A stretch of DNA of 53,957 nucleotides from Bacteroidales bacterium. Lineage in GTDB: Bacteria > Bacteroidota > Bacteroidia > Bacteroidales > JAGOPY01. The DNA is taken from positions 1 to 53,957 of the forward strand of contig JAHYJL010000002.1 of assembly GCA_019429045.1 (NCBI GenBank). Direction: 5' to 3'. Below, in pieces: positions 1,284-50,260 of this stretch. Both the position numbers and the translations under genes were made by a program. Within the stretch, counting starts at the first letter, position 1; every line of letters begins with the position of its first letter. The notes beneath the pieces were generated by a model, which was given only the letters and a program-made list of their open reading frames with translations, was not told the origin of the DNA and did no database searches.

Positions 1284-1381
1284 GTTTCGTGTTTCGTGTT
1301 TCGTGTTTCGTGTTTCGTGTTTCGTGTTTCGTGTTTCGTGTTTCGTGTTTCGTGTTTCGTGTTTCGTGTTTCGTGTTTTCT
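1284..1381 (+). repeat. tandem heptamer array (GTTTCGT)x13 perfect plus 1 degenerate copy (GTTTTCT)
   Basis: Counted directly: perfect copies at 1284+7k up to 1374. It lies between the pcm stop (1270) and the lipoprotein ATG (1450). Confidence 0.98.
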
Positions 1382-1449
1382 GTCTTCTAACTTCTTTTGC
1401 TTATCTTTACATCTTCAAACAAGAACATCAATTTAAAATTTTATCAACC

Positions 1450-2340
1450 ATGAAAAAAACACTTTTGTTTGCGCTTTCATTACTGATTTCTTCAGTGCTT
1501 TTCCTTTCGTCCTGCACCGATGATGACGAACCGCTAAATCAGCCTCCCACCATCAGTTTTGTGGCAGGAGCTAACTTTATATCAAGTAACGCTACTGTGA
1601 AAGTGAATCAACCTTTCATCGTAAAAATTCTGGCTGAAGCCAATACAGCTTCAGGTTCCAAAATTCAGTCGCTGAAAATCAGCCGTGTATTCAATATGCA
1701 GGCCTGGGACACTACTTTTGCGTATAATGATGCAACTTTCACACTTGAAGTGACCTTTACGGCCAATTCTCAAGTAGGTGTGGAGAGAATTACATTTGAA
1801 ATTACCGATAAGGCCGGCCAAAAAGCTTCAAAATTCCTTGACATCACTACAGAGCCGGATATCACTCCCATCGAGTATTTCTCCATGAAGATACTGGGAT
1901 CATACCAGAACCCAACCGGTAGTTCTTTTGCTTCCATCAACGGGAATGTCTATACCATGGCCCAGGCCTTTGCCAACCAGGCAATTATCGACTTCCTCTA
2001 TTGGTGGGGCGCATCTGCTTTAGCCACGATCGGAGCGCCTGATGATGAAAATGCAAATCTGGTTTATACCGGTGTTAACGGTTTGCCCAACTGGGCTATC
2101 AAAAATGCCACCCGTTTCAAAACTACCACTGTTACAGCGACTGAATTCGATGCGCTGGATGATGGCGCCTCGATTATCGATGCCGCCACCGGATCGGATC
2201 AGACACGCATAGGCTCCCTGGCTGTCGGCAACGTGATAGCCTTCAAGACGGTTACAGGAAAACATGGCCTGATCAAGGTGGTAAATATCAATGACGGCGC
2301 TGCCGGCGATATCACCATCGATGTTAAGGTGGAACTTTAG
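1450..2340 (+). CDS. hypothetical lipoprotein
   Basis: The track ORF 1273..2340 starts inside the GTTTCGT array, giving a FRVSC-repeat artefact. The in-frame ATG at 1450 gives MKKTLLFALSLLISSVLFLSSC, a lipoprotein signal peptide with a lipobox Cys. I recognise no family. Confidence 0.7.
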   Translation: MKKTLLFALSLLISSVLFLSSCTDDDEPLNQPPTISFVAGANFISSNATVKVNQPFIVKILAEANTASGSKIQSLKISRVFNMQAWDTTFAYNDATFTLEVTFTANSQVGVERITFEITDKAGQKASKFLDITTEPDITPIEYFSMKILGSYQNPTGSSFASINGNVYTMAQAFANQAIIDFLYWWGASALATIGAPDDENANLVYTGVNGLPNWAIKNATRFKTTTVTATEFDALDDGASIIDAATGSDQTRIGSLAVGNVIAFKTVTGKHGLIKVVNINDGAAGDITIDVKVEL

Positions 2341-2380
2341 CATTTTCGTTAATTTTTCGTTAATTACGGTTCTTTAAATA

Positions 2381-2435
2381 TTCATCTCCATCATTTTTGA
2401 TAATTTTGAAAAATGATGGAGATGAATTTTATTTT
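2381..2435 (+). promoter_or_regulatory. 18-bp perfect inverted repeat (stem-loop) plus T-tract overlapping the hydroxylase start codons
   Basis: The left arm 2381-2398 TTCATCTCCATCATTTTT is the exact reverse complement of the right arm 2409-2426 AAAAATGATGGAGATGAA. The loop is 2399-2408 GATAATTTTG, followed by TTTTATTTT (2427-2435). The right arm contains the ATGs at 2413, 2416 and 2422. Confidence 0.7.
2401..2408 (+). promoter_or_regulatory. candidate -7 box (TAATTTTG) in the loop of the 2381-2426 hairpin
   Basis: Matches TAnnTTTG, and its G lies 4 nt before ATG 2413. This would imply a leaderless or near-leaderless hydroxylase mRNA. Confidence 0.35.
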
Positions 2436-5019: not shown

Positions 5020-5026
5020 GGGGGAT

Positions 5027-5096
5027 AGTTTTGAGTTTTGAGTTTTGAGTTTTGAGTTTTGAGTTTTGAGTGTTGAGTGTTGAGTGTTGAGTTAAT
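5027..5096 (+). repeat. tandem heptamer array (AGTTTTG)x6 (AGTGTTG)x3 plus degenerate AGTTAAT
   Basis: Counted directly. It fills the fahA stop (5104) to flavin-reductase ATG (5019) spacer. On the sense (-) strand it reads (CAACACT)3(CAAAACT)6, which contains no G. Confidence 0.98.
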
Positions 5097-5103
5097 TTGA
5101 GAT

Positions 5104-6408
5104 TTAATCCTTGGGGGGCAAAATTATTGTGGTTGCTTCGCCGAAGCCGATGCGAAGGCCATTTTTTTCGGCCCGGCCCCGCATTATGACCGTATCGCCG
5201 TCGTGGAGGAATTTCCGCTCTGAGCCATCGGGCATCCGGATGGGTCTGGTGCCTTTCCAGGTAAGTTCCAGCATAGAACCGAAAGATCCTTCATCTGGTC
5301 CGCTGATCGTCCCGGATGCGCATATATCTCCTGTCCTGACGTTGCACCCGTTCACTGTATGATGCGCCAGTTGCTGGCACATGTTCCAGTACATATATTT
5401 GAAATTAGAACGGCATACTAACATAGCGTCTTTTCCAGAAACTTCATCGCGCTCCGGCAAGCGGCTAACGGCCGGCGGCTCAATCGCCACCTCCAGTTGA
5501 ATATCATAGTTCCTGGCGCCTTCGAACTTCAGGTAAGGCAACACTTCCGGATCCTGAACCGGTCCCTTCGCCCGGAAAGGTTCCAGCGCTTCCAGGGTAA
5601 CAATCCAGGGAGAAATCACCGAGCCGAAGTTTTTGCTCAGAAAAGGCCCCAGCGGAACATATTCCCATTTCTGGATATCCCGGGCTGACAAGTCGTTAAA
5701 TAACACTAATCCAAAGATATAATCCTCCGCATTTGAAGTACTGATTGAGGTGCCCAGATCGGTATTTCCACCTACGATAAATCCAATCTCCAACTCGAAA
5801 TCCAGTTGCTGCGTAGGGCCAAAATCGGGAAAAGATTTGTCGTCGGCTTTGGTTTGCCCTTTCGGGCGATGAATGGGAGTACCCGAGACAACGATTGATG
5901 AGGCACGGCCGTGATAGCCAACAGGTATGTGCTTCCAGTTCGGCAGCAGTGCATTGGCCGGATCGCGGAACATCCTGCCAACATTGGTGGCATGCTCCTC
6001 GCTGGAATAAAAATCTGTGTAGTCGCCTACCGAAACGGGCATTTGCATTTTCACCTCATGCACAGGATACAGGGCGTGGTTTTGCAGTGCAAGGTTTTCT
6101 TTGATCATGGGATTATCCGAAGCAAAAAGCGTCATGATCAGCTCCCTGACTTTACCTGTAACCGGTTTGCCCAGGGCGATGAAATCGTTCAGGATAGGTT
6201 GGTAAAAGACAGATAAATCATTGATCTCCAAGTCATCAAAGAAACCGTGATCAGCCAGGACCGAAAGGTCAACCACCGTGTTGCCAATCCGGGTAGCCGG
6301 CCTTGGGCTGTTTTCATTGTTACTAAAGATCCCGAACGGGATATTCTGCAACGGAAAATCATTCCCTGCAGGCACCCGAATCCAGCTATATCTTAAATCA
6401 TTTCCCAT
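5104..6408 (-). CDS. fahA: fumarylacetoacetase
   Basis: 434 aa with the N-terminal SWIRVPAGNDFPLQNIPFGIFS and a C-terminal FAH-fold region. It is adjacent to hppD and hmgA. Confidence 0.92.
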   Translation of the reverse strand: MGNDLRYSWIRVPAGNDFPLQNIPFGIFSNNENSPRPATRIGNTVVDLSVLADHGFFDDLEINDLSVFYQPILNDFIALGKPVTGKVRELIMTLFASDNPMIKENLALQNHALYPVHEVKMQMPVSVGDYTDFYSSEEHATNVGRMFRDPANALLPNWKHIPVGYHGRASSIVVSGTPIHRPKGQTKADDKSFPDFGPTQQLDFELEIGFIVGGNTDLGTSISTSNAEDYIFGLVLFNDLSARDIQKWEYVPLGPFLSKNFGSVISPWIVTLEALEPFRAKGPVQDPEVLPYLKFEGARNYDIQLEVAIEPPAVSRLPERDEVSGKDAMLVCRSNFKYMYWNMCQQLAHHTVNGCNVRTGDICASGTISGPDEGSFGSMLELTWKGTRPIRMPDGSERKFLHDGDTVIMRGRAEKNGLRIGFGEATTIILPPKD

Positions 6409-6410
6409 CC

Positions 6411-6445
6411 TAAATTCAAAATTATAAATTCTAAATTCTAGATTT
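6411..6445 (+). repeat. degenerate heptamer array TAAATTC AAAATTA TAAATTC TAAATTC TAGATTT
   Basis: Five period-7 units fill the hppD stop (6444-6446) to fahA ATG (6408) spacer. Confidence 0.8.
6417..6424 (-). promoter_or_regulatory. candidate -7 box (TAATTTTG) inside the 6411 array
   Basis: Matches TAnnTTTG on the - strand, 8 nt upstream of the fahA ATG 6408. It may be fortuitous given the AT-rich repeat. Confidence 0.25.
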
Positions 6446-7538
6446 AAAGCGTTCCCCTTTTTTCCTGTTCCCTTTCGATCGATTCAAACAACGCTTTGAA
6501 ATTACCTTTTCCAAATGATTTCGCCCCTTTGCGCTGAATGATCTCATAAAATACCGTGGGCCTGTCTTCAACCGGCTTGGTGAAGATCTGCAGCAAATAC
6601 CCCTCGTCATCCCTGTCGACCAATATATTAAGATCTTTCAGCGGCAGCAAGTCTTCGTCAATCTCCCCTACCCTGTCGAGCACATCATCATAATATGAAT
6701 CTGGAACATAGAGAAATTCCACGCCACGCCTTCGCAGCTCGCCAACGGTATTGATGATATTATCGGTGGCCATAGCGACATGCTGCACGCCCGGCCCCCG
6801 GTAATAATCAATATACTCTTCTATCTGCGACTTTTTCTTCCCCTCTGCCGGCTCATTCAAAGGAAATTTGATACGGTCGTTGCCATTGGCCATTACTTTC
6901 GACATCAATGCCGTATATTCGGTAGAGATGTCCTTGTCGTCGAATGAGATCAACTGCCTGAATCCCATCACATCGGCATAAAATTTTGCCCAAAGGTTCA
7001 TTTCGCCCCAGCCCACATTACCAACCATATGATCGACATATTTCATGCCAATGGGTTCGGTTTTATAGGCCGGTTGCCATTTGGTAAACCCGGGGAGGAA
7101 TGGGCCTTTGTAATCCTTGCGCTCGACAAAGATATGCACCGTTTCGCCGTAGGTATGAATACCTGATCTCACGACCCGCCCATGCTCATCCTGTTCGACA
7201 ACAGGCTGCAGATATGGTTTGGCCCCTCTTTTGACGGTTTCATTGAAAGCGCTGGTGGCATCATCCACCCACAACGCAACAACTTTAACCCCGTCGCCGT
7301 GCAATTTCACATGCTCTCCGATAGGAGAATCGGGGATTAGAGCGGTGGTGAAAACGAAGCGGATCTTATCCTGTACCAGGACATAGGAAGTTTTTTCCTT
7401 GTCGCCGGTCTCCAGTCCCTTGTAAGCCAGAGGCTGAAATCCGAAAGCTGTCCGGTAATAGTAAGCTGCCTGTTTGGCATTGCCAACGTAAAACTCTACG
7501 TAGTCGGTGCCATTGATGGGGAGGAAATCGTGAAACAT
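6444..7538 (-). CDS. hppD: 4-hydroxyphenylpyruvate dioxygenase
   Basis: 364 aa, with two VOC/glyoxalase-like halves and a C-terminal FGKGNFKALFESIE motif typical of HPPD. Confidence 0.93.
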   Translation of the reverse strand: MFHDFLPINGTDYVEFYVGNAKQAAYYYRTAFGFQPLAYKGLETGDKEKTSYVLVQDKIRFVFTTALIPDSPIGEHVKLHGDGVKVVALWVDDATSAFNETVKRGAKPYLQPVVEQDEHGRVVRSGIHTYGETVHIFVERKDYKGPFLPGFTKWQPAYKTEPIGMKYVDHMVGNVGWGEMNLWAKFYADVMGFRQLISFDDKDISTEYTALMSKVMANGNDRIKFPLNEPAEGKKKSQIEEYIDYYRGPGVQHVAMATDNIINTVGELRRRGVEFLYVPDSYYDDVLDRVGEIDEDLLPLKDLNILVDRDDEGYLLQIFTKPVEDRPTVFYEIIQRKGAKSFGKGNFKALFESIEREQEKRGTL

Positions 7539-7546
7539 ACCTTTAT

Positions 7547-7581
7547 AGTTTTGAGTTTTGAGTTTTGAGTTTTGAGTTTAT
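7547..7581 (+). repeat. tandem heptamer array (AGTTTTG)x4 plus degenerate AGTTTAT
   Basis: Counted directly. The unit is the same as in the 5027 array. It lies between the hmgA stop (7589) and the hppD ATG (7538). Confidence 0.97.
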
Positions 7582-7588
7582 TTGGGAT

Positions 7589-8749
7589 TTATCCATTTAG
7601 CCAGCTTTTAAAATAACCGGGATCTTCTATTTCAAGCGCAGCGCGGGTGATTTTCAGCGGCCGGAAGGTATCGACCATGACAGCGAGTTCCCGGGTCTCT
7701 TTCTGCCCGAGGCTTTTTTCCACTGTTCCGGGATGCGGTCCGTGCGGAATGCCAATCGGGTGCAGGGTGATCTGACCGCGCTCCACATGTTTGCGGCTCA
7801 TGAATTCGCCATCGACATAATACAGCACTTCATCCGAATCCACATTACTATGATTATAGGGAACGGGAATGGCCAGCGGATGATAATCGTACATCCTGGG
7901 CACAAAAGCACAGGTTACGAAATTATTCCCATCGAAAGTCTGATGCACGGGAGGAGGCTGGTGAATCCGGCCGGTAATCGGTTCAAAATCATGAATGGAT
8001 AATGCGTAAGGGTAATGATATCCATCCCATCCGATCGCATCAAAGGGGTGCGAGGCGTAATGATAAGGATACACCAGGTCCTGTTTTTTCACCATGACCA
8101 CAAAATCTCCCTTTTCGTCATGGGTTTCAAGCTCCTGCGGTTTACGGATATCCCTTTCATAATAAGGCGCATGTTCCAGCAGTTGTCCGGCATCGTTGAC
8201 GTACCGCTTTGGAAAACGGTAAGGACCAAAGGATTCAACAATAAACAACCGGTTATCCTTTGTCGAAAAATCGAGCCTGTATATTACTCCCCGGGGAATG
8301 ATCAGGTGGTCGCCATAGCGAAAAGGTATATTGCCGTAAATGGTCTTCAGCACTCCTTCGCCCTGGTGGACAAAGACCATTTCATGTCCGTCTGAATTTT
8401 TAAAGAAATGATCCCCTCCCCACTGTTCCGGCGCCGCGAGATGGATATATACGTCGTCGTTGACCAGCACAGCTTTGCGGCTCCTGATATAATCCCCTTC
8501 CGGTTTGACCTTAAATCCCTGGAAGCTACGATGCTGCATATTTTTCTCCAAGGCAATTTCCGGTGCAACTGAAAATGGTTCTTCAATTTCCCTGATTCTT
8601 GTCGGCGGATAATGGTGATACACCAGGGAATATTCGGCTGAAAAGCCTTCCGTTGACACAAGCTGCTCGGCATATAGGTTTCCGTCCGGCTTGCGAAATT
8701 GAATATGTCGCTTGGGAGGGATATCTCCCAGTTTATGATAATGTGGCAT
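7589..8749 (-). CDS. hmgA: homogentisate 1,2-dioxygenase
   Basis: 386 aa cupin-type dioxygenase (MPHYHKLGDIPPKRH...). Its length and its context upstream of hppD and fahA fit bacterial HmgA. Confidence 0.92.
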   Translation of the reverse strand: MPHYHKLGDIPPKRHIQFRKPDGNLYAEQLVSTEGFSAEYSLVYHHYPPTRIREIEEPFSVAPEIALEKNMQHRSFQGFKVKPEGDYIRSRKAVLVNDDVYIHLAAPEQWGGDHFFKNSDGHEMVFVHQGEGVLKTIYGNIPFRYGDHLIIPRGVIYRLDFSTKDNRLFIVESFGPYRFPKRYVNDAGQLLEHAPYYERDIRKPQELETHDEKGDFVVMVKKQDLVYPYHYASHPFDAIGWDGYHYPYALSIHDFEPITGRIHQPPPVHQTFDGNNFVTCAFVPRMYDYHPLAIPVPYNHSNVDSDEVLYYVDGEFMSRKHVERGQITLHPIGIPHGPHPGTVEKSLGQKETRELAVMVDTFRPLKITRAALEIEDPGYFKSWLNG

Positions 8750-11559: not shown

Positions 11560-13629
11560 TCAAAACTCAAGTAACCCGATACAAGCGTTATATATTTTTT
11601 CGGCATTCGGTAAAATAGCGTTCTCCAGTATCCTGTGAAATCCTACCGGTGTGAATTCAGAACCGACCCTTTTCACCGGGGCATCAAGGAATTCAAAAGC
11701 CTCAGCCGCGATCATGGCGGCAATCTCTGCGCCGAATCCTGAAAAAACCTTATCTTCATGCAAAACCAGCGCCCTGCCGGTCTTTTTCACCGTGGCCAGG
11801 ACTGCTTCTTTATCCAGCGGTATCAGCGACCTAAGGTCGATCACCTCGATGCTCTTCCCATTTTCGTTGAAGATCTGTTCTGCAACCTGCAGTGCCATAT
11901 GGGTTGTGTTGCCGTAGGTGATGATGCTGAGATCAGTCCCTTCCCTCCTGGTGCGTGCTTTGCCGAATGGCACCTCGAAATCATCCGGAATAACGGTTTC
12001 GGCAACCGGATCATTGTACAACGCTTTGGGTTCCATGAAGACGGTGGGACCTTTGGAGCGAATGCTGGTCCTGAGCAAACCGGCAGCGTCATCGGCGAAA
12101 GAGGGATAAACGATTCGGATGCCCGGAAAAGTGGAAAGTGCCCCCTCGATCGATTGCGAATGATACAAACCTCCTCCAATATACCCGCCTGAGGCGAGCC
12201 TGATTGTAACATTGGACGCAAACTGGCCATTCGTCCGCCAGTAATCATGGGTCATCTCGACGAATTGCTCCATTGCCGGCCAGAAGTAGTCGGCAAATTC
12301 AGCGCCCTCTATTACAATCCTTATCTTAGCGTCAAAACGGCTCATACCATTGGCAGTACCCACGATATAATCTTCGGCGATAGGGGCATTGAAAACCCTT
12401 TCCCGGCCAAATTCCTGCTGCATGCCTTTGGTAACATTGAACACCCCTCCTTTCTCTTTATTTGCCAAATCCTGCCCCCAGATAAAGGTATCCGGATTGT
12501 GCCTGAATTCCTGCTTCAGGGTTTTGTTCAACGCATGGATCAGTTTCTTCTTTTCTCCTTCTGAATGGTGAATACCATCGGGGTATTTAGCCGGCTGGTA
12601 TGCTTCGGGTAAAACATAATCATGAATGGAAGCGGGATCCGGATCGGGTAACATGATCACTTTCTTGTGCGCGGCTGAAATCGTCCGTTTGGCTTGTGCG
12701 TCCAGCTCTTCCAGCTCCGGTTCGGTAAAAATGCCGGAGTATATCAATCGTTTCCTGAATTTCTCAAGCGGGTCCTGGCTCCGGGCTTCGATGATCTCAT
12801 CATTATCACGGTAAAGTTCGTGCCGGTCCGAATTGGAATGGGAATGCATCCTGACGCAATGGGCATGCACGATCACCGGCTGACTGGTTTCCAGGACATG
12901 CTGCCTGGCAACATTCATGGCATTCATGCTGCTGAATACGTCGAGGCCGTTGCAATAGATGATCCGGAGATTCTTAAAGCCTTCGAAATTGGTTGCAGCA
13001 TAATAATTGGCGGTTTGGTCCTCTTTAGGCACCGAAATACCATAACCATTATCCTGGAATACAAAGATAATCGGCAGTAGCTCATTGCTGGCACCGTTAA
13101 TCGCCTCATAAACATATCCTTCTGAGGTCGAGGATTCTCCCTGGGAGCTGATGGCCACCCCGCCTGATTTGTAATATTTCATGGCTCTGGCCACACCAAC
13201 GGCATGCAGGGTGTGGTTACCCGTGGCTGAAGAAACGTTATGAATGTTCCATGCCGGTTTGGCAAAATGGTTCGACATATGCCGGCCGCCGCTGGCAACA
13301 TCATCCTTCTTCGACAGTCCGTTCAATATTATTTCCTCTACCGTCAACCCAGCTGAAATAGTAGTGAGCATATCCCTGTAGTAAGGAAAAAGATGATCCT
13401 TTTTACGGTCGAAAACCTGGCCGATGGCAAGCTGAATGCCGTCATGTCCGGCATACGGGGCATGGTATGACCATCCCAGCGCCTGTTTCAGGTAATTCGG
13501 GGCTTTATCGTCGATCTGCCTTCCCAGCGTCATCAAGGAATACCATTTTTTCAAGGTGTCCTTATCTGTCTGCTTGATGGTATACAACTTATCGCCTTTG
13601 TTAATCCTGAGCCTCTTATTTTGATACAT
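11560..13629 (-). CDS. 2-oxoacid dehydrogenase E1 component, fused alpha/beta subunits (TPP-dependent)
   Basis: 689 aa single ORF. The N-terminal half resembles E1 alpha (TPP-binding region). The C-terminal half resembles E1 beta, the transketolase-like pyrimidine-binding and C-terminal domains. Confidence 0.85.
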   Translation of the reverse strand: MYQNKRLRINKGDKLYTIKQTDKDTLKKWYSLMTLGRQIDDKAPNYLKQALGWSYHAPYAGHDGIQLAIGQVFDRKKDHLFPYYRDMLTTISAGLTVEEIILNGLSKKDDVASGGRHMSNHFAKPAWNIHNVSSATGNHTLHAVGVARAMKYYKSGGVAISSQGESSTSEGYVYEAINGASNELLPIIFVFQDNGYGISVPKEDQTANYYAATNFEGFKNLRIIYCNGLDVFSSMNAMNVARQHVLETSQPVIVHAHCVRMHSHSNSDRHELYRDNDEIIEARSQDPLEKFRKRLIYSGIFTEPELEELDAQAKRTISAAHKKVIMLPDPDPASIHDYVLPEAYQPAKYPDGIHHSEGEKKKLIHALNKTLKQEFRHNPDTFIWGQDLANKEKGGVFNVTKGMQQEFGRERVFNAPIAEDYIVGTANGMSRFDAKIRIVIEGAEFADYFWPAMEQFVEMTHDYWRTNGQFASNVTIRLASGGYIGGGLYHSQSIEGALSTFPGIRIVYPSFADDAAGLLRTSIRSKGPTVFMEPKALYNDPVAETVIPDDFEVPFGKARTRREGTDLSIITYGNTTHMALQVAEQIFNENGKSIEVIDLRSLIPLDKEAVLATVKKTGRALVLHEDKVFSGFGAEIAAMIAAEAFEFLDAPVKRVGSEFTPVGFHRILENAILPNAEKIYNACIGLLEF

Positions 13630-27102: not shown

Positions 27103-27121
27103 CAAACCTTGCCGCTACGAC

Positions 27122-27358: not shown

Positions 27359-27424
27359 ATTGCAAGATTTGGTTCGAAAATATGGATAAATCAATGCCTT
27401 ACAATTCTGTGGCCATAAAATTTA

Positions 27425-36392: not shown

Positions 36393-37697
36393 ATGGCCAC
36401 ATTTGATATCGTGATGCCCAAACTGGGCGAAAGCATTATTGAGGCAACCATCACCAAATGGCTGAAGGCTGCCGGCGACCAGGTCAATGAAGATGATGCG
36501 CTGGCGGAGATCGCCACCGACAAAGTTGATTCCGAAATTCCTTCCCCTGTGGAAGGCGTTGTAAAAGAGCTTTTTTTCAAAGAGGGTGATATTGTGCCAG
36601 TCGGAAAGGTCATTGCTGTCATTGACCTGGGCGGAGAGGCAGCCACACAGGAAATAAAGGAAGAGGAAAAAGATGCGGAACCGGTAAAAGAAGAGAAACC
36701 GGCAGAAAAAGAAGCAAAACCCGCCCCGGCTGCCCCGGCGAAAGAAAGTGATGAAGCTTATGCTGGCGACAGGTTTTATTCCCCACTGGTAAAAAATATA
36801 GCCGAAAAGGAGAATATATCGTTGCAGGAACTGGACAAGGTTCCGGGAAGCGGCAAAGACGGCCGGCTCACGAAGCAGGACCTGCTTGATTATCTGCAAA
36901 ACAGGCCCTCTGAAGAAGCGGCTCCGGAAAAATCGGTTGCAGCCAAAGCGGTCCCATCCTTTGAAGCGCCGAAAGTGACCACGGAAAGCGGTGATGAGAT
37001 CTATGAGATGGACCGCATGCGAAAGCTCATCGCCGACCATATGGTGATGTCGAAGCAGGTTTCCCCGCATGTTACCTCATTCATTGATGTCGATGTCACG
37101 GCCATCGTCAACTGGCGGGAAAAGAACAAAGATGCCTTCTTCGACCGCGAAAAGGAAAAACTCACCTACACGCACATTTTCATAGAGGCCGCCGCGCAGA
37201 TATTGAAGGAATTCCCGCGTGTGAACGCTTCTGTAGACGGAATGAATATCATCCACAGGAAAAAAATCAATATCGGCATGGCAACGGCCCTGCCCAACGG
37301 TAACCTGATCGTTCCTGTGATTCGCAATGCGGATCAGAAAAACCTGCTAGGTATTATTAAAGACGTGAACGACCTGGCCAACCGGGCCCGGAAGAACAGT
37401 TTGCTACCGGACGAGATCCAGGGAGGCACCTTTACAGTGACCAACTTCGGCACATTCGACAGCCTCACGGGCACTCCCATCATAAACCAGCCGCAGGTCG
37501 CCATCCTGGGCATCGGGGCCATCCGCAAAAAACCGGTAGTCATCGAAACAACCCAGGGCGACGTGATTGGCATACGACACATCATGATCCTGTCCCTGGC
37601 CTATGACCACCGCATGGTCGACGGCGCTCTCGGCGGCATGTACCTGAAAAGAATGAAGGAAATGCTGGAAGATTGGGATTCGGATAGGAAGATATAG
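36393..37697 (+). CDS. 2-oxoacid dehydrogenase E2 component (dihydrolipoamide acyltransferase)
   Basis: 434 aa. It has a lipoyl domain (EIATDKVDSEIPSP), an Ala/Pro/Glu-rich linker, an E3-binding segment and the catalytic LAYDHRMVDG. Confidence 0.9.
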   Translation: MATFDIVMPKLGESIIEATITKWLKAAGDQVNEDDALAEIATDKVDSEIPSPVEGVVKELFFKEGDIVPVGKVIAVIDLGGEAATQEIKEEEKDAEPVKEEKPAEKEAKPAPAAPAKESDEAYAGDRFYSPLVKNIAEKENISLQELDKVPGSGKDGRLTKQDLLDYLQNRPSEEAAPEKSVAAKAVPSFEAPKVTTESGDEIYEMDRMRKLIADHMVMSKQVSPHVTSFIDVDVTAIVNWREKNKDAFFDREKEKLTYTHIFIEAAAQILKEFPRVNASVDGMNIIHRKKINIGMATALPNGNLIVPVIRNADQKNLLGIIKDVNDLANRARKNSLLPDEIQGGTFTVTNFGTFDSLTGTPIINQPQVAILGIGAIRKKPVVIETTQGDVIGIRHIMILSLAYDHRMVDGALGGMYLKRMKEMLEDWDSDRKI

Positions 37698-37699: not shown

Positions 37700-37755
37700 G
37701 TTTCTTGTTTCTTGTTTCTTGTTTCTTGTTTCTTGTTTCTTGTTTCTTGTTTCAA
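37700..37755 (+). repeat. tandem heptamer array (GTTTCTT)x7 plus degenerate GTTTCAA
   Basis: Counted directly. It begins 3 nt after the E2 stop (37697). It is the exact reverse complement of the 40304 array unit. Confidence 0.98.
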
Positions 37756-37770
37756 ATTCCGGATTAATCC

Positions 37771-37798
37771 AACATTCAAAATTCAACATTCAACATCA
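37771..37798 (+). repeat. degenerate heptamer array AACATTC AAAATTC AACATTC AACATCA
   Basis: Four period-7 units. The last base is the A of the exonuclease ATG (37798). The array contains no G. Confidence 0.8.
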
Positions 37799-38601
37799 TG
37801 CAACTATCCCTCACCCGCCCGCTCGCCATTTTTGACCTGGAGACTACCGGGACCAACGTCGCCACAGACCGCATCGTGGAAATATCAGTGATCAAATTAA
37901 TGCCCGACGGGTCGAAAGAGGCGCTGAACCAGCGGATCAACCCCGGCATGCCGATTCCGAATGAAGCCACCCTGATCCATGGAATTACAGACCTTGACGT
38001 GAAAGAGAGCCCTTCCTTCAATGATTTTGCCCCAAAACTGAATGATTTTCTCGAAAATGCCGATCTGTCGGGATACAACGCGATCAAATTCGATATACCA
38101 TTGCTTGTTGAAGAGTTTTTAAGAGCAGGGATAGATTTTTCCCTGATGGACCGGCACGTGGTCGATGTGCAGAACATCTTCCATAAAATGGAACCCCGGA
38201 CCCTGAAAGCCGCTTATAAATTCTATTGCGGTAGGATTTTAGAAATGGCCCACTCGGCTGAAGCGGACGCTATGGCAACCTATGAAGTTCTCCTTGCCCA
38301 GCTTGACTTTTACCATGACCAGGAATATACCGATCCCGACGGCATGGTCAGTAAACCGGTGAAGAATGATGTGAAGGCGCTGAGTGATTTTTCCTATTAC
38401 ACCCGCAATGTCGATCTTGTCGGGCATATCGTTTTCAATGAGAAACAGCAGGAAGTGCTGAACTTCGGGAAATACAAAGGCCAGTCGGTAGAGCAGATCT
38501 TTACCAAAGAGCCTTCGTATTACGACTGGATGATGAAAAGTCAGTTTCCCCTTTCGACCAAGCGGGTTATACAGGCGATCTGGAAGAGAAGCAGGAAATG
38601 A
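37798..38601 (+). CDS. DnaQ-like 3'-5' exonuclease (DEDDh) domain protein
   Basis: 267 aa. The motifs are ExoI AIFDLETTG, ExoII YNAIKFDIPLL and ExoIII HSAEADAMAT. Confidence 0.85.
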   Translation: MQLSLTRPLAIFDLETTGTNVATDRIVEISVIKLMPDGSKEALNQRINPGMPIPNEATLIHGITDLDVKESPSFNDFAPKLNDFLENADLSGYNAIKFDIPLLVEEFLRAGIDFSLMDRHVVDVQNIFHKMEPRTLKAAYKFYCGRILEMAHSAEADAMATYEVLLAQLDFYHDQEYTDPDGMVSKPVKNDVKALSDFSYYTRNVDLVGHIVFNEKQQEVLNFGKYKGQSVEQIFTKEPSYYDWMMKSQFPLSTKRVIQAIWKRSRK

Positions 38602-38636
38602 AATTTTGAATTTTAAGTTTTGAATTTTAAATTTTG
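38602..38636 (+). repeat. degenerate heptamer array AATTTTG AATTTTA AGTTTTG AATTTTA AATTTTG
   Basis: Five period-7 units exactly fill the gap between the exonuclease stop (38601) and the first ATG of the ALDH gene (38637). Confidence 0.85.
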
Positions 38637-40259
38637 ATGGGGATGGTAAACACATCTATCTTTCCACCAATGGAACAGATACCGGAGAAGTTCCGGTTAA
38701 GGCACCGGGTGGTGCAGAAGGAGTATCTTATCAACGGCCGTTTGGTGAAATGGGACGGGCGGCTGCAGGAGGTTTATTCGCCGGTATGTATCAAGGCTGA
38801 AAATGGCAGTATCTCCCCTTACCTGATCGGGGAATATCCGATGCTGAAGGCGAAGGAATCGCTGGAGGCGCTGGATTCTGCAGTCGCTGCTTACGATCAT
38901 GGCAGGGGGACATGGCCGACGATGTCGTTAGAACAGCGGATTGCCCACCTGGAGAAGTTCACCTTACGGATGAAAGAGCACCGGGAAGAGGTAATCAACC
39001 TGCTGATGTGGGAGATTGGCAAAACTTTGACCGATTCGGCGAAAGAGTTTGACCGGACTGTCGAGTATATCCGTGATACGATAGAGGCGCTCAAAGAGCT
39101 TGACCGGGTTTCCTCCCGGTTTCAGATCCACCAGGGGATCATCGGCCAGATCCGCCGGGCGCCGCTGGGCGTGGTGCTTTGCATGGGCCCTTTCAACTAT
39201 CCCCTCAATGAAACCTTCACCACCTTGATCCCCGCCCTGATCATGGGCAATACGGTCATTTTCAAGCCTCCCAAATACGGTGTTCTGCTGCATCAACCCT
39301 TGCTTACGGCATTCCGCGACTCTTTCCCGCCGGGCGTTATCAATACGGTTTACGGCGATGGCCCTGAAGTGATCGGCCCGCTGATGGAATCGGGGAAGAT
39401 CGACGTGCTGGCATTTATCGGCACCAGCCGGGTAGCCGGCATCCTGAAAAAGCAGCACCCTAGTCCGCACCGCTTGCGCAGCGTTCTCGGGCTGGAAGCA
39501 AAAAATCCCGCCATCGTTCTGCCCGGCGCCGATCTCGACCTGGCCGTCAGCGAATGCATCCTGGGAAGCCTCTCATATAACGGGCAGCGATGCACCGCGC
39601 TGAAGATCATTTTTGTACATGAATCGATTGCGGAAGAATTCATCCGCAGAATGGCTGAAGGAATATCTTCTCTTAAAATAGGCATGCCGTGGGATGAGAA
39701 AGTACAGATCACCCCCCTGCCAGAAGAAGGCAAAACAGATTACCTGGCAAGACTGGTCAACGATGCCGTTTCCAAAGGGGCTAAGGTGGTGAATGCAGGC
39801 GGTGGAGAAAGCCATCATACCTTCTTCTCCCCCGCCCTGCTCTATCCTGTCAATGGATCTATGAAAGTCTGGACGGAAGAGCAATTTGGCCCGGTGGTGC
39901 CGGTAGCCCCGTTTAAAGATATCGCCGAACCCCTGGAATATGTAACAAACTCCAACTATGGCCAGCAGATCAGCATTTTCGGCAAAGAATCGGATACAAT
40001 TGCAAAACTCATCGATCCGCTGGTGAACCAGGTCTGCCGCCTGAACATCAACAGCCAGTGCCAGCGAGGGCCCGACACCTTCCCCTTCACCGGGCGGAAA
40101 GATTCCGCCGAAGGGACACTGTCGGTTTCCGATGCCCTGCGCGTTTTCTCCATCCGCAGCCTCGTCGCCGCCAAAAGCACCGACCAGAACAAACAGATCA
40201 TTACAACCATTGTCAAGGAAGATAAATCGAATTTCCTGTCGACGGATTTCATTTTCTGA
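38637..40259 (+). CDS. aldehyde dehydrogenase family protein, non-phosphorylating NADP-dependent GAPDH (GapN)-like
   Basis: About 540 aa with ALDH motifs (FKPPKYG, LGLEAKNP, catalytic GQRCTA, EEQFGPV). The track start 38634 is TTG, and the first ATG (38637) directly abuts the heptamer array. An alternative ATG lies at 38670. Confidence 0.82.
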   Translation: MGMVNTSIFPPMEQIPEKFRLRHRVVQKEYLINGRLVKWDGRLQEVYSPVCIKAENGSISPYLIGEYPMLKAKESLEALDSAVAAYDHGRGTWPTMSLEQRIAHLEKFTLRMKEHREEVINLLMWEIGKTLTDSAKEFDRTVEYIRDTIEALKELDRVSSRFQIHQGIIGQIRRAPLGVVLCMGPFNYPLNETFTTLIPALIMGNTVIFKPPKYGVLLHQPLLTAFRDSFPPGVINTVYGDGPEVIGPLMESGKIDVLAFIGTSRVAGILKKQHPSPHRLRSVLGLEAKNPAIVLPGADLDLAVSECILGSLSYNGQRCTALKIIFVHESIAEEFIRRMAEGISSLKIGMPWDEKVQITPLPEEGKTDYLARLVNDAVSKGAKVVNAGGGESHHTFFSPALLYPVNGSMKVWTEEQFGPVVPVAPFKDIAEPLEYVTNSNYGQQISIFGKESDTIAKLIDPLVNQVCRLNINSQCQRGPDTFPFTGRKDSAEGTLSVSDALRVFSIRSLVAAKSTDQNKQIITTIVKEDKSNFLSTDFIF

Positions 40260-40303
40260 TGCATTGGTTGTAATTCGTTATAATTTTATGGATTTCAATT
40301 CTT

Positions 40304-40415
40304 GAAACAAGAAACAAGAAACAAGAAACAAGAAACAAGAAACAAGAAACAAGAAACAAGAAACAAGAAACAAGAAACAAGAAACAAGAAACAAGAAACA
40401 AGAAACAAGAAACAA
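40304..40415 (+). repeat. tandem heptamer array (GAAACAA)x16 perfect
   Basis: Counted directly: copies at 40304+7k up to 40409. The final A of copy 16 is the A of the FAH-family ATG (40415). Confidence 0.98.
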
Positions 40416-41029
40416 TGAAAATCATCTGCATCGGACGAAATTACGTTGAGCATGCCAAAGAGCTGAAAAATCCGCTTCCGAAAAATCCGGTCTTCTTCCT
40501 GAAACCTGAAACGGCGCTGCTTACGGATAATCAACCTTTTCCTTATCCCAGCTTTTCAAGAGATGTTCACTACGAAACCGAACTGGTGCTGAAAATCAGC
40601 CAAACGGGAAAGTCGATTCCCGAATCGGTTGCCTGTGATTACTTCGACCGGATCGGGCTGGGAATTGATTTCACGGCCCGCGATCTGCAGCAAAAGTGCA
40701 AGGAAAAAGGCCTTCCGTGGGAAATTGCCAAAGGGTTTGATCATTCAGCGCCCGTTAGCAAAGTATTTCTGGCTAAATCATCTTTCCCTGATCTGAATAA
40801 TATTCGCTTCCACCTGCTGTTGAATGGTAAAAAGGTACAGGAAGGTAACGCGCGGGATATGATCTTCTCTTTTGAAACGATCATCGCTTACATTTCAAAG
40901 TTTATAACCCTGACACCCGGCGACCTGATCTTCACCGGAACACCCGCCGGCGTTGGCCCGGTAAAAGCAGGCGACAGACTGGAAGGATACATCGAAGACA
41001 AACCAATGATCAGTTGCCAGGTAACATGA
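40415..41029 (+). CDS. fumarylacetoacetate hydrolase (FAH) family protein, short single-domain type
   Basis: 204 aa. MKIICIGRNYVEHAKEL...ETELV...GDLIFTGTPAGVGP is the typical FAHD/HpcE-like fold. Confidence 0.88.
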   Translation: MKIICIGRNYVEHAKELKNPLPKNPVFFLKPETALLTDNQPFPYPSFSRDVHYETELVLKISQTGKSIPESVACDYFDRIGLGIDFTARDLQQKCKEKGLPWEIAKGFDHSAPVSKVFLAKSSFPDLNNIRFHLLLNGKKVQEGNARDMIFSFETIIAYISKFITLTPGDLIFTGTPAGVGPVKAGDRLEGYIEDKPMISCQVT

Positions 41030-44250: not shown

Positions 44251-44257
44251 TGTAATT

Positions 44258-44292
44258 GTTTCTGGTTTCTGGTTTCTGGTTTCTGGTTCTAA
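44258..44292 (+). repeat. tandem heptamer array (GTTTCTG)x4 plus degenerate GTTCTAA
   Basis: Counted directly. It lies 7 nt upstream of the recF ATG (44250) in the sense direction. On the sense (-) strand it reads (CAGAAAC)4. Confidence 0.95.
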
Positions 44293-44328
44293 GCTTTATT
44301 TTATTACTATTTGAAATGAAATAAATCA

Positions 44329-44356
44329 AGAAACTAGAAACAAGAAACTAGAAAGA
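44329..44356 (+). repeat. heptamer array AGAAACT AGAAACA AGAAACT AGAAAGA, inverted relative to the 44258 array
   Basis: Counted directly. Its reverse complement matches GTTTCT-N in 6 of 7 positions. It lies 22 nt downstream of the PorQ-like gene stop (44378). Confidence 0.9.
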
Positions 44357-44377
44357 AAGCAAAGGTATAAATTTTCC

Positions 44378-45589: not shown

Positions 45590-45590
45590 C

Positions 45591-47846: not shown

Positions 47847-47855
47847 ATTTGTTAG

Positions 47856-47916
47856 TGTTGAGGTTTAAGGGTTAAGGTTTAAGTTGAGGTTTAAGTTTTA
47901 AGTGTTAAGGTATAAG
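47856..47916 (+). repeat. degenerate heptamer array, GTTTAAG-like, about 8-9 units with one register slip
   Basis: It reads GTGTTGAG GTTTAAG GGTTAAG GTTTAAG TTGAG GTTTAAG TTTTAAG TGTTAAG GTATAAG. It starts 10 nt upstream of the aconitase ATG (47846) in the sense direction. Confidence 0.8.
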
Positions 47917-47931
47917 TGGATTTTTGATTTG

Positions 47932-47939
47932 CAAAAGTA
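47932..47939 (-). promoter_or_regulatory. candidate -7 box (TACTTTTG)
   Basis: Matches TAnnTTTG on the - strand, 85 nt upstream of the aconitase ATG 47846. This would place the 47856-47916 array inside the 5' UTR. Confidence 0.4.
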
Positions 47940-48093
47940 GGGATTTTCCGGTTTAAAGGTTATTAATACGCTTGGGTTTTCAAATATATGGAGGAGGAAT
48001 TTTTAATCTGTCAATACCTGGCTCGCCAATAATGGCAATTTATTTTTATTCTAAATAAAATGCCGTTTTAACCTTTATTAACATCCACAAATA

Positions 48094-48101
48094 TAGATTT
48101 G
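48094..48101 (+). promoter_or_regulatory. candidate -7 box (TAGATTTG)
   Basis: Matches TAnnTTTG, 29 nt upstream of ATG 48131. It supports that start over TTG 48110. Confidence 0.4.
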
Positions 48102-48130
48102 GATTAATTTTGAATGATATTCAGATTATT

Positions 48131-48907
48131 ATGATCAGGTCTCTGCTGTTTTCCCTGTTTACAGCGATGGCGTTTGGCACTTTCTCTCAGAATTATCCTG
48201 CAGATAGGATCTTGGTATCAGGTGATGTCAAAAACATGGAAGGAACACCGGTTTCATATATTCATGTCCTTAACAAGACAAGGAATGAAGGCTCGGTCGG
48301 GGATTATTACGGGCGGTTCTCTATTTCAGTATTTCCTGGGGACACATTGGGGATCTCTTGTGTTTCCTTTCAAGATGCATTGGTGGAGATCCCTTCAGGT
48401 TTTCTACTTTTTCGCTACCACTTATCCATTATTTTAATTGAGGACACAATCGATCTGAAAGAAGTAGTGATTTACCCATGGCCAGCAACAATTGAAAAAC
48501 TGAAAGAAGAAGTGCTGAAACTCGAAATCCGTGATCCGGTAAGTGAAAATATTACTCCCTACCTGCCTACATCGACAGAATTGAGAACGTTAGCGCATCC
48601 AGTTGGAGTCATAATTTCAATGCCCGGTCCTTTTTCGCTTATTTATGACCATTACAGCAAAGAAGCCAGGCGGAAAAAGGCTTATGCCAAAGCGCTTAAC
48701 GAGGAAAAAGCATCAAAAAAGTATAATACTAAGATTATTTCCAGAATTACTGGAATAAATAACGATAATGAAATTGCAAGATTTATCAAGTTTTGCTCCC
48801 TGGAAATCCCATTCATCCTAAATGCGACTGAATATCAACTATATTCTGCAATTCTCGAATGTTTTAATGAATACTGTGAAATTTATCCTGATTTGCTATT
48901 GCACTGA
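48131..48907 (+). CDS. hypothetical secreted protein with carboxypeptidase-regulatory-like N-terminal domain
   Basis: The track start 48110 is TTG. ATG 48131 gives the signal peptide MIRSLLFSLFTAMAFGTFSQ. The segment ILVSGDVKNMEGTPVSYIHVLN...GRFSISVFPGDTL resembles a CarboxypepD_reg-like beta-sandwich. Confidence 0.5.
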   Translation: MIRSLLFSLFTAMAFGTFSQNYPADRILVSGDVKNMEGTPVSYIHVLNKTRNEGSVGDYYGRFSISVFPGDTLGISCVSFQDALVEIPSGFLLFRYHLSIILIEDTIDLKEVVIYPWPATIEKLKEEVLKLEIRDPVSENITPYLPTSTELRTLAHPVGVIISMPGPFSLIYDHYSKEARRKKAYAKALNEEKASKKYNTKIISRITGINNDNEIARFIKFCSLEIPFILNATEYQLYSAILECFNEYCEIYPDLLLH

Positions 48908-48957
48908 ATTACCATTCAATGCTTAAAACATTTCTGTCATTTAATCGTTTTAAGAGC

Positions 48958-50229
48958 ATGAGAATATATATTGTTTCTATAATTTTATTGTTTTCCCTAC
49001 CATTTGCCAGGCAGGTCTCAGCTGCCTACCTGCTGATCCCTATGGACGACACTCAGAAGAACCATTTGAAAGCATATGGCATCGCTTACTGGGCGCTGAC
49101 GCACGATGTGGAGATTTACTGGCTGCTCAATTACCGGGGGGGCAGTTACATGTTTCAGCACAACAAAACCTTTGAAAATGAATGTATCATCCGCGGGGTG
49201 AGCTACCAGGTCATTGCCGATGTGCAATCCTCGGCCATCCTGCGTGAAATCGCAGACCCACAGGTCAATATGGACGCGGTGAAACTGCACAAAGCGCCTA
49301 AAATTGCCGTTTATTCCCCAAAAAATAAACTTCCCTGGGATGATGCCGTTACCCTCGTGCTGACCTACGCTGAAATTCCTTATGATCTTATATATGACAC
49401 TGAAGTGATTGAAGGGCGATTGCCGCTGTATGACTGGCTGCACCTTCACCACGAGGATTTTACCGGACAATATGGTAAGTTCTGGTTTGCTTACCGCAAT
49501 CATCCCTGGTACCAGGAGGATGTCAGGACTAACGAAGAGACCGCCCGAATGCTTGGCTTCTCCAAGGTATGTGAAATGAAGCTGGAAGTTTCAAAGAGGA
49601 TCAGGGAATACGTTTCCGGAGGCGGCTATCTGTTTGCCATGTGCTCGGCACCTGATAGTTATGATGTCGCTCTTTCAGCAGATGGGGTTGATATCTGCGA
49701 TATCATGTTTGATGGGGATCCAATGGACCCGGATGCACAATCGAAGCTGAATTATCATAATTGCTTTGCCTTTACCGATTTTATCATCAGTACGAACCCA
49801 TACGAATATGAAATTTCATCGATTGATGTAACTACAACCAGGCCCAAGCATCTGAAAGAAGGAAATGATTTTTTCACCTTGTTCGAGTTCTCAGCTAAAT
49901 GGGACCCCATTCCAACCATGCTATGCCAGAACCATACACAGGTAATCAGGGGATTCATGGGCCAGACAACAGCATTCAACAAAGACCAGGTCAAAAGCAA
50001 AGTGCTGGTAATGGGGGAAAACAAACCGGCCAATGAAGTGAAATATATCCACGGCGAGTTCGGCAAAGGGTTCTGGACTTTTTACGGAGGGCATGATCCC
50101 GAAGATTATTCTCATCTGGTGGGGGACCCGCCCACTGAACTGGACCTGTACCCTAATTCACCGGGTTATCGCCTGATATTGAACAACATCCTTTTCCCGG
50201 CTGCAAGGCAGCAGAAGAGGAAGACTTGA
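48958..50229 (+). CDS. conserved hypothetical secreted protein
   Basis: The ORF is 48919..50229. ATG 48958 gives the signal peptide MRIYIVSIILLFSLPFARQVSA. The internal GGGYLFAMCSAPD resembles a nucleophile elbow of the class-I glutamine amidotransferase / DJ-1 fold, a weak pattern-only match. Confidence 0.55.
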   Translation: MRIYIVSIILLFSLPFARQVSAAYLLIPMDDTQKNHLKAYGIAYWALTHDVEIYWLLNYRGGSYMFQHNKTFENECIIRGVSYQVIADVQSSAILREIADPQVNMDAVKLHKAPKIAVYSPKNKLPWDDAVTLVLTYAEIPYDLIYDTEVIEGRLPLYDWLHLHHEDFTGQYGKFWFAYRNHPWYQEDVRTNEETARMLGFSKVCEMKLEVSKRIREYVSGGGYLFAMCSAPDSYDVALSADGVDICDIMFDGDPMDPDAQSKLNYHNCFAFTDFIISTNPYEYEISSIDVTTTRPKHLKEGNDFFTLFEFSAKWDPIPTMLCQNHTQVIRGFMGQTTAFNKDQVKSKVLVMGENKPANEVKYIHGEFGKGFWTFYGGHDPEDYSHLVGDPPTELDLYPNSPGYRLILNNILFPAARQQKRKT

Positions 50230-50260
50230 GGGGCATGGGGGCATGGGGGCATGGAGGCGG
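50230..50260 (+). repeat. G-rich octamer array (GGGGCATG)x3 followed by GAGGCGGG
   Basis: Counted directly. It lies between convergent genes that end at 50229 and 50267. It contains four G-runs of at least 3. Confidence 0.95.

Follow-up and report, generated by a model that had tools for sequence, protein, structure and literature searches.

Heptanucleotide tandem arrays at gene boundaries in an uncultured Bacteroidales lineage

Background

Head-to-tail repeats with units of 5-11 nt (LSSR5-11; Mrázek, Guo & Shah, PNAS 2007) occur in scattered bacterial lineages, have heptamers as their commonest class and were ascribed to a general tendency towards expansion, maybe tied to how much DNA the polymerase holds (~7 nt), as related in two later papers (PMC4679880, PMC4692102). 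Here, we analyze a stretch of 53,957 nt from an uncultured Bacteroidales bacterium (contig JAHYJL010000002.1 of assembly GCA_019429045.1; the whole stretch is called the window), in which tandem arrays with a period of mostly 7 nt lie between housekeeping genes, together with related loci from metagenomes. In so far as the LSSR5-11 are portrayed in these papers, our arrays resemble them in having short units repeated beyond chance, mostly heptamers, in the largely intergenic placement of units that are not a multiple of 3, and in a patchy distribution among lineages; the LSSR5-11 were also attributed to slippage expansion rather than to a specific function, like the reading that we favor below. 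The window and its relatives show the same beyond-chance copies, intergenic bias, dominance of period 7 and lineage-specific abundance, and the genic exceptions lie in frame in loops or linkers. What sets them apart from the LSSR5-11 of that account are the local density (~22-48 per 100 kb), the uncultured Bacteroidales host, a polarity at starts and stops, and the in-frame arrays in enzyme loops.

The closest described case is that of the TAACTGA arrays, found a few nucleotides upstream of starts in Beggiatoaceae, cyanobacteria and five Bacteroidetes, for which MacGregor (2015) proposed translational regulation (PMC4679880). For instance, Flexibacter litoralis has heptamer arrays that precede start codons by 1-43 nt, and arrays also occur in Paludibacter (Bacteroidales), Gramella, Aequorivita and Elizabethkingia (PMC4679880). 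Thus, the belief expressed in an original prediction for our stretch, made by a model from the letters and their reading frames, that such arrays had not been described for Bacteroidota does not hold. Both sets comprise intergenic heptamers close upstream of the starts of unrelated or housekeeping genes, mostly in one orientation in the TAACTGA case, where the genomes have few Shine-Dalgarno sites and occasional arrays lie within open reading frames (ORFs) or reversed past stops; furthermore, the TAACTGA spacers of Gramella and Aequorivita carry other heptamer units as well (PMC4679880). In contrast to this single unit, our loci have many units, which fall into two or more families per genome; the arrays are also longer, with up to 16.6 copies, and lie on the stop side as often as on the start side. 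No tandem TAACTGA was found in the window or in the related loci scanned.

Sister species of Xanthomonas have GGGAATC arrays at corresponding gene junctions, with differing lengths and sequences and some as inverted pairs (Rehm et al. 2015; PMC4692102). These and the GGGGA(T/C)T arrays of Nostoc share with ours some inverted pairs able to form hairpins and the lack of a tie to gene functions (PMC4692102); their units are G-rich and form G-quadruplexes, whereas ours are A/T-rich without G-tracts, except for the period-8 unit GGGGCATG. A preprint by Pradhan et al. reported that Nostoc heptamer repeats affect the expression of recF and recO at the level of transcription or translation (10.1101/2022.06.06.494920). 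The recF leader of the window is likewise built of arrays.

Further comparisons extend to other groups. The heptanucleotide STRR repeats of cyanobacteria were reportedly described by Mazel in 1990, and the units in heterocystous cyanobacteria are CCCCAGT (STRR1), TTGGTCA (STRR2) and CAACAGT (STRR3); like our arrays, these tandem heptamers are scattered through intergenic DNA close to promoters and starts, but they differ in phylum and unit sequence. In Haemophilus influenzae, 7-bp repeats lie upstream of hmw, and such contingency loci are hypervariable, both within strains and from one strain to another, and sit on surface or virulence genes. Ours are also intergenic 7-bp repeats upstream of genes, with a copy number that could slip in principle, but the genes are housekeeping genes and, in a relative, four arrays were invariant. 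The REP/BIME of enterobacteria, which are intergenic palindromes, are similarly abundant small elements in intercistronic and 3' positions, and the hairpin-forming subset of our arrays could likewise affect mRNA stability or processing; in contrast to REP/BIME, however, there is no conserved palindrome, most arrays are non-palindromic, and the unit is tandem rather than dispersed. None of the units STRR1-3, TAACTGA, GGGAATC, GGGGATT or that of hmw matched an array unit here, so the window arrays are best regarded as new members of the known heptamer-repeat class, outside the named unit families.

Results

Tandem Repeats Finder (TRF) returned 13 window arrays of 3.6-16.6 copies, of which 12 have a period of 7 nt, one has a period of 8 nt, and six are 100% perfect; these are exactly the arrays that the original prediction had listed. 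Second-order Markov shuffles of the window (n=100) yielded a mean of 0.08 period-7 arrays and a maximum of 2. All 13 arrays fall within the ~5% of the window outside long ORFs (binomial p = 1e-17), in agreement with the claim that none lies in a confident coding sequence. To place them in context, relatives were gathered by a metagenome scan with the ExoX-like protein encoded in the window (80 loci, 0.9 Mb) and by homologues of its 4-hydroxyphenylpyruvate dioxygenase (HPPD; 5 more loci); individual loci carry an L number below. Among 80 arrays in the 0.9 Mb of relatives, 65 were intergenic (p = 4e-50).

Arrays within 30 nt of a start or stop boundary were counted as proximal, in the window and the relatives alike. 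In the relatives, a heuristic ORF caller trimmed each start to the first start codon past an array, which left stops unaffected. By this count, 30 arrays are stop-proximal, 22 start-proximal and 21 far from both, and 42 of 68 lie within 10 nt of a coding boundary, at starts as well as stops, where 25.5 would be expected under random placement within their own spacers. On the mRNA strand, the two groups differ in composition (Fisher p = 1e-6): C exceeds G in 18 start-proximal arrays and G exceeds C in 4, with 14 of the 22 entirely G-free, whereas G exceeds C in 24 stop-proximal arrays and C exceeds G in 3, and none of the 30 is G-free. Furthermore, ATG, GTG or TTG triplets occur in the sense strand of 5 of the 22 start-proximal arrays, against 15 of 22 in the antisense strand.

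Part of this composition belongs to leaders in general. Leaders of the clade contain 12% G, and 44% of their 7-mers are G-free, against 64% of the start-proximal arrays; the G-poverty of start-side arrays is thus only modestly above the leader baseline, and we discarded a G-free leader as a special property of arrays. The description of leader arrays as A/C-rich and G-poor is accordingly right for most of them, but close to what leaders of this clade look like in general. At stops, the bias opposes the baseline, which there has C in excess of G; hairpin pairs, in which the upstream arm complements a G-free downstream arm, would explain it in part, and it might possibly also arise if untranslated RNA that is rich in C and poor in G were avoided because Rho would load on it. 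A simpler rule, A>T at starts and T>A at stops, fitted the window (6:1 and 5:1) but failed in the relatives (12:14 and 13:24) and was replaced by the C/G polarity.

Array-led initiation regions of the window and relatives (n=25; -40..+20) are predicted to fold less than 484 others, with a median minimum free energy (MFE) of -2.6 versus -5.4 kcal/mol (p = 1.6e-4), and the upstream 40 nt alone have medians of 0.0 versus -2.1 (p = 5e-6). The start-side arrays at 5027, 7547, 40304 and 47854 are predicted to be essentially unstructured (MFE 0 to -4 kcal/mol), whereas those at 6410 and 38601 fold as weak A/U hairpins and the recF pair 44258/44327 as a strong one; the proposed inability of leader arrays to self-pair therefore describes the group on average, but not these members. 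In Bacteroidetes, mRNA structure and adenines upstream tune initiation, and spurious AUG triplets are avoided in the vicinity of starts (PMC6847099), in line with the premise of Shine-Dalgarno-independent initiation favoring A-rich, unstructured leaders. Probably, the start-side arrays behave as unstructured, start-codon-free leaders as a by-product of tolerance, and this would not be the reason for which arrays exist.

Array abundance is strongly lineage-specific and falls with phylogenetic distance: per 100 kb, there are 22 period-7 arrays in the window, 48 in the five closest ExoX relatives, 22 in the HPPD relatives, 4.2 in ExoX relatives at 57-67% identity and 1.2 in 1.3 Mb of diverse bacteria. 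The latter control set (L001-L080) came from an aldehyde dehydrogenase (ALDH) scan with 63-71% matches in unrelated phyla and no synteny. It contains period-7 clusters in loci of Syntrophus and Syntrophorhabdus metagenome-assembled genomes (MAGs; L010:5320-6158; L054:1247-2071, 12872-12902), so dense heptamer arrays are not limited to Bacteroidota. In the relatives, periods of 6, 7, 8 and 9 nt account for 5, 51, 16 and 8 arrays, respectively.

Arrays recur at orthologous junctions. Those between the genes of the 2-oxoacid dehydrogenase E2 component and ExoX, ExoX and ALDH, HgmA (homogentisate dioxygenase) and HPPD, and HPPD and FAH (fumarylacetoacetase) carry arrays in nearly all close relatives, across ~10-20% protein divergence, and the unit varies by genome. 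At the HPPD-FAH junction, it is ATTTAGA in the window, AGTGTTG in L162, ATTGAAA in L163, AATGTTG in L165 and a degenerate TTTAGTG in L166; at the HgmA-HPPD junction, it is AAACTCA in the window, AATTTCA in L162 and L163, and in L166 the period-8 AAATTTTC, which grades into 7-mers. Such unit drift at fixed junctions is concerted evolution of a resident array, and since it includes the step from 7 to 8 nt at HgmA-HPPD, the period is not set by a fixed ruler. Hence, a period of ~7 does dominate, as the original prediction had it, but it is not fixed, as one and the same orthologous array has 7 nt or 8 nt depending on the genome. Between FAH and the flavin reductase, the window has an 84-nt array spacer, L162 a TAAATG overlap and L166 a 72-nt array-less spacer; arrays are therefore dispensable. 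Co-directional spacers have a median length of 92-118 nt with an array and 30-35 nt without one, so the arrays are additions. Between HgmA and HPPD, L163 has a further gene (L163:9572-9922), shared with L164 and L165, whose 116-aa product belongs to the 23S_rRNA_IVP / four-helix-bundle family (PF05635). Inverted arrays flank it, of TGAAATT type past the HgmA stop and of AATTTCA ahead of the HPPD start; the window, L162 and L166 lack the gene.

Arrays also occur within genes. A hypervariable loop of FAH contains in-frame arrays of AAACCCG in L162, GTCAGCG plus GACAATC in L163 and CAGTTGA plus ATTCAAC in L165; L166 lacks the loop, and the window FAH (5104-6408, minus strand) has it in degenerate form. 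A loop of HgmA, absent in the window, has arrays in L163 and L166, and the peptides encoded by in-frame arrays have a 7-aa periodicity, e.g. KTQNSELKTQNS. Furthermore, period-7 and period-8 arrays encode, in frame, part of the flexible linker between the domains of E2 (orthologue of window 36393-37697) in four relatives at a greater distance. Arrays in frame inside enzymes cannot be leaders, and the repeats thus enter any tolerant sequence. Taken with the stop-proximal arrays, which outnumber the start-proximal ones, these in-frame arrays of FAH, HgmA and E2 contradict the notion of leader-specific elements.

The units are related to each other. Those of the window form two related families, each in both orientations, with 16 unit pairs at no more than one mismatch where 2.8-5.1 are expected (P < 0.0005): by unit comparison, a GTTTCNN family comprises arrays 1283, 37700, 40304, 44258 and 44327, and an AGTTTTG-like family arrays 5027, 7547, 37766, 38601 and 6410. 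The argument that differing units of one period point to a shared mechanism rather than a single element retains its first half, the shared tendency towards ~7 nt, but its units are not independent. Array 5027 is itself divided into blocks of variant units, AGTTTTG x6 and then AGTGTTG x3, and AATTTCA is reused at four different spacers in L163. Among adjacent array pairs of the window and relatives, 6 of 19 are inverted complements, one of them being the window pair 44258/44327, whose units are one mismatch away from being reverse complements; hairpin-type pairs occur also in L146 and L157. A composite (CAGTYGA)n-(AWTCAAC)n was found both in an intergenic spacer of L086 and within FAH of L165. 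BLAST of the 40-nt flanks of all 13 window arrays revealed no common termini, flanks or target duplications beyond trivial overlaps.

Two further relations between window arrays were observed. The CAAAACT arrays 5027 and 7547 have a common degenerate 5' edge, TAAATCYCAAATWAACTCAA, with 18/20 identical nt (5094-5103 versus 7580-7588, just past the stops), which suggests that ectopic conversion or copying has made paralogues of their spacers, which lie 2.5 kb from each other in the same operon. In addition, GTTTCTT (37700-37753) is the reverse complement of GAAACAA (40304-40420), so that inverted arrays of 54 bp and 117 bp flank the ExoX-ALDH gene pair; these would in principle be long enough for inversion through homologous recombination.

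Look-ups of three window proteins returned only the source contig, Ga0369713_1000365, from one sample (3300033232); this JGI metagenome contig has 53,997 bp, and the window spans it almost in full. A relative with an identical HPPD protein in three samples (L163, L164 and L165, from JGI, Logan and ENA) could be followed instead: four arrays in 100%-identical tracts had the same copy number in all three, in what is a small sample from a relative of the window organism. This lends no support to the suggested tuning by slippage and is limited evidence against hypervariability of the contingency type. L163 and L165 are otherwise 100% identical except for ~1.5 kb at 85-97% identity (L165:2600-4100; from the 3' end of HPPD across the spacer into FAH, most of which is included), which looks like an import by homologous recombination that swapped arrays too.

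The genes of the window are housekeeping genes, encoding PCMT, a lipoprotein, RecF, DciA, aconitase, the 2-oxoacid dehydrogenase components E1 and E2, the ExoX-like exonuclease and an aldehyde dehydrogenase, together with a homogentisate pathway cluster of an aromatic-amino-acid-hydroxylase-like gene, a flavin reductase, FAH, HPPD and HgmA. The nearest HPPD homologues are metagenomic, 79-91% identical, and several belong to "Bacteroidales bacterium" MAGs in NCBI. A motif scan found 50 matches to TAnnTTTG, which we take to be the -7 promoter consensus of Bacteroidota, where 34.5 are expected; they occupy many spacers in the correct orientation. Because of these homologues and this excess, the predicted placement of the host in Bacteroidota is reasonable. 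Rfam covariance models gave no match at gathering thresholds over the whole window, and a tRNA and tmRNA scan of the window found no genes.

Judging by the position of TACCTTTG, arrays 44258 and 44327 would lie within the recF 5' untranslated region (UTR), and, with TACTTTTG as promoter, the predicted 5' UTR of aconitase would consist almost entirely of array 47854 (Table 1). Promoters inside arrays were considered and rejected, as the TAGTTTTG matches at 5026 and 7546 in the motif scan are antisense, at array edges and probably incidental. Two ORF calls were rejected as well: a 355-aa JGI ORF that adds 59 codons upstream through the TGTTTCG array (1273-1449; MHLLFRVSCFVFRVSC...) is an artefact, as the orthologues start at 1450, a start confirmed by alignment with 298-300-aa orthologues, and a 38-aa JGI ORF over the GAAACAA array (40302-40418) is spurious. 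Away from the arrays, an 11-nt direct repeat, TTTTCGTTAAT, occurs twice at 2343-2365 and is followed by a -7-like motif, TAATTTTG, at 2401-2408, only 5 nt upstream of the start (2413) of a 581-aa gene with a Biopterin_H domain; the two may represent an operator and promoter for a nearly leaderless transcript of that gene. A 322-nt gap between annotated genes (27103-27424) holds 12-nt repeats and, as its sole ORF, one of 90 aa with a TTG start (27122-27394, minus strand).

Table 1. Arrays and promoter-like motifs of the window, and in-frame arrays of relatives (array calls by TRF; distances are to the nearest start or stop named)
Feature	Position	Strand	Copies	Context
TGTTTCG	1283..1378	+	13.7	perfect; 12 nt past PCMT stop (1270), 71 nt before lipoprotein start (1450); stop-proximal, G/T-rich on mRNA strand
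AGTTTTG	5027..5093	-	9.6	mRNA sense (CAACACT)x3 then (CAAAACT)x6, G-free; fills 84-nt spacer from FAH stop (5104) to flavin-reductase start (5019; 7 nt); MFE 0 kcal/mol
CTAAATT	6410..6448	-	5.7	78% match, degenerate; mRNA-sense AATTTAG-type; fills spacer from HPPD stop (6444) to FAH start (6408; 1 nt); predicted weak A/U hairpin, MFE -9.9 kcal/mol, z = -2.0
AGTTTTG	7547..7579	-	4.7	mRNA sense (CAAAACT)x4.7, G-free; between HgmA stop (7589) and HPPD start (7538; 8 nt)
GTTTCTT	37700..37753	+	7.7	perfect; 2 nt past E2 acyltransferase stop; stop-proximal
CAACATT/CAAAATT	37766..37797	+	3.9	G-free; ends at ATG (37798; 0-1 nt) of ExoX-like gene; orthologous arrays in L082, L084, L086
AATTTTG	38601..38637	+	5.1	from ExoX stop codon to aldehyde dehydrogenase ATG (38637), overlapping it
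GAAACAA	40304..40420	+	16.6	enters and overlaps ATG (40415) of FAA-hydrolase-family gene
GTTTCTG	44258..44288	-	4.4	mRNA sense CAGAAAC; 7 nt upstream of recF ATG (44250); 3' arm of predicted hairpin with 44327 (MFE -25.4 kcal/mol, z = -1.8)
AGAAACT	44327..44354	-	3.7	mRNA sense AGTTTCT/TGTTTCT; 23 nt past stop of upstream gene; 5' arm of predicted hairpin with 44258
CGACTAA	45555..45588	-	4.9	mRNA sense TTAGTCG; 2 nt past aconitase stop (45591); stop-proximal, G-containing
AGGTTTA, degenerate	47854..47918	-	8.3	mRNA sense AAMMCTY x ~8-9, G-free; 7-14 nt upstream of aconitase ATG (47846); MFE -2.6 kcal/mol
GGGGCATG, period 8	50230..50258	+	3.6	between two convergent gene ends (50229, 50267)
TACCTTTG, TAnnTTTG match	44360..44367	-		just upstream of both recF-leader arrays; motif scan
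TACTTTTG, -7-like promoter motif	47932..47939	-		directly upstream of aconitase leader array; consensus match alone
In-frame arrays, FAH and HgmA loops	L162:12088-12121; L163:12083-12140, 8618-8651; L165:3941-4010; L166:9092-9126			
In-frame arrays, E2 linker	L099:474-503; L113:7201-7227; L119:1305-1355; L148:9174-9260			

Discussion

The explanation that we favor, and hold to be reasonably probable, is that heptanucleotide repeats generated by slippage have proliferated in one uncultured Bacteroidales lineage, where they fill DNA of low constraint and are filtered by strand near starts and stops. In a first step, units of ~7 nt would be duplicated and expanded by slipped-strand mispairing at replication; the blocks of variant units in array 5027 and the concerted drift at orthologous junctions are indirect signs of this, and loops of ~7 nt escape mismatch repair of the MutS type. 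As the orthologous spacers show, arrays then stay at a given junction while their copies evolve in concert, so that the unit drifts and its length can change. They build up wherever constraint is low, as seen from their presence in spacers between cistrons, in UTRs at both the 5' and the 3' end and, in frame, in loops and linkers, and they reach up to the coding boundaries. Finally, selection would act in a strand-specific manner: at starts, only arrays without G on the mRNA strand, which lack AUG, GUG and UUG and pair little, would survive, a filter that fits the Shine-Dalgarno-independent, structure-sensitive initiation of Bacteroidia, whereas on the stop side G-containing, C-poor arrays would remain, partly as the complementary arm of hairpin pairs.

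Several observations weigh against this explanation. Neutral filler alone does not explain how arrays survive the usual deletion bias of bacteria, why only a few unit families, in both orientations, are present per genome, or why stop-proximal arrays are never G-free despite a baseline in which C exceeds G. Start-side arrays that are less structured than ordinary leaders would equally fit positive selection, and the starts beside G-free arrays are partly fixed by the trimming rule. Furthermore, the survey consists of ~1 Mb of fragmentary metagenome sequence with heuristic ORF calls.

One could therefore suppose that arrays are selected cis-elements, which would provide unstructured A/C-rich leaders or spacers and, through slippage, a copy number tuning the downstream gene. 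We regard this as unlikely on the whole, although much of the start-side evidence accords with it: eight of the 13 window arrays end 0-14 nt from a start, as the distances quoted in the original prediction correctly indicated, start-proximal arrays are mostly G-free with few sense start triplets, array-led initiation regions fold less than others, arrays are retained at junctions while proteins diverge, and the Nostoc heptamers act on recF and recO. The remaining five window arrays adjoin a stop codon, however, and across the survey stop-proximal arrays are as many as start-proximal ones, while some lie within coding sequences. Orthologous junctions function without an array or any spacer, array spacers are the longer ones and hence carry additions, the recF and FAH leaders form predicted hairpins, copy number was the same in three samples, and the G-free fraction is just modestly over baseline. 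Adaptive tuning accounts for only part of the array distribution.

An extended version of this idea, which we rate as rather improbable, would make the arrays a selected cis-regulatory grammar for operons lacking Shine-Dalgarno sites. G-free heptamer arrays directly upstream of starts would give the ribosome, or a heptamer-reading protein, a standby or landing platform, and the G-containing, C-poor arrays after stops would serve as insulators or hairpin partners, e.g. by resisting Rho loading or by controlling how the mRNA is processed; unit families would evolve together with a factor acting in trans, and the stoichiometry of cistrons would follow from array length.

Small as we consider its chances, it is also conceivable that a protein specific to the lineage, e.g. 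a nucleoid protein or an RNA-binding protein of the cold-shock or S1 type, uses the arrays as multimeric sites and reads ~7 nt per monomer. The arrays would thereby constitute a post-transcriptional regulon, in the manner that MacGregor suggested for the TAACTGA repeats (PMC4679880). CspB of Bacillus subtilis binds heptamer repeats with one protein per heptamer, according to a study cited in PMC4679880, and the non-independence of units, with their GTTTCNN and AGTTTTG families and the AATTTCA of four L163 spacers, is what a common reader might impose. Such a reader is difficult to reconcile with several unit families per genome in both orientations to transcription, with units that drift freely between close relatives and pass from period 7 to 8, and with arrays in coding sequences; among the window genes, no candidate protein was identified.

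Inverted complements among adjacent pairs, the same unit at several loci, the common 5' edge of 5027 and 7547, and the composite repeat shared by an L086 spacer and the L165 FAH are reminiscent of a small non-autonomous element, MITE- or REP/BIME-like, that inserts at gene boundaries and has heptamer arms. We consider such an element very improbable, as the 13 arrays have no conserved termini, flanks or target duplications, most arrays are single, no Rfam family matches, and the gradual drift of units at orthologous positions indicates vertical inheritance. Lastly, although the window is a single metagenome contig from one sample, in which the copy number of long perfect arrays such as that of 117 bp is unverifiable, an artefact of short-read metagenome assembly can practically be set aside, as arrays occupy orthologous junctions in independent JGI, ENA, Logan and NCBI assemblies.

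Conclusions

The window arrays reveal no new kind of element. To our knowledge, the window is nevertheless among the densest local concentrations of heptanucleotide repeats, and 22-48 arrays per 100 kb, extrapolated to an assumed genome of ~4 Mb, would amount to the order of a thousand arrays. In practical terms, the arrays produce annotation errors such as N-terminal extensions and spurious small ORFs, and likely also cause assembly and copy-number errors in MAGs.

Three features, namely the polarity at starts and stops, the persistence at junctions with turnover of the unit, and the in-frame invasion of enzyme loops, go beyond the heptamer literature cited here, of which Mrázek (2007) is represented second-hand. 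The ribosomes of Bacteroidia are expected to ignore Shine-Dalgarno sequences, and the same is expected for the host clade. Together, the three features constitute a natural dataset on which sequences are tolerated beside starts and stops under Shine-Dalgarno-independent initiation, and the same arrays bear on the question of why slippage in bacteria favors units of ~7 nt.

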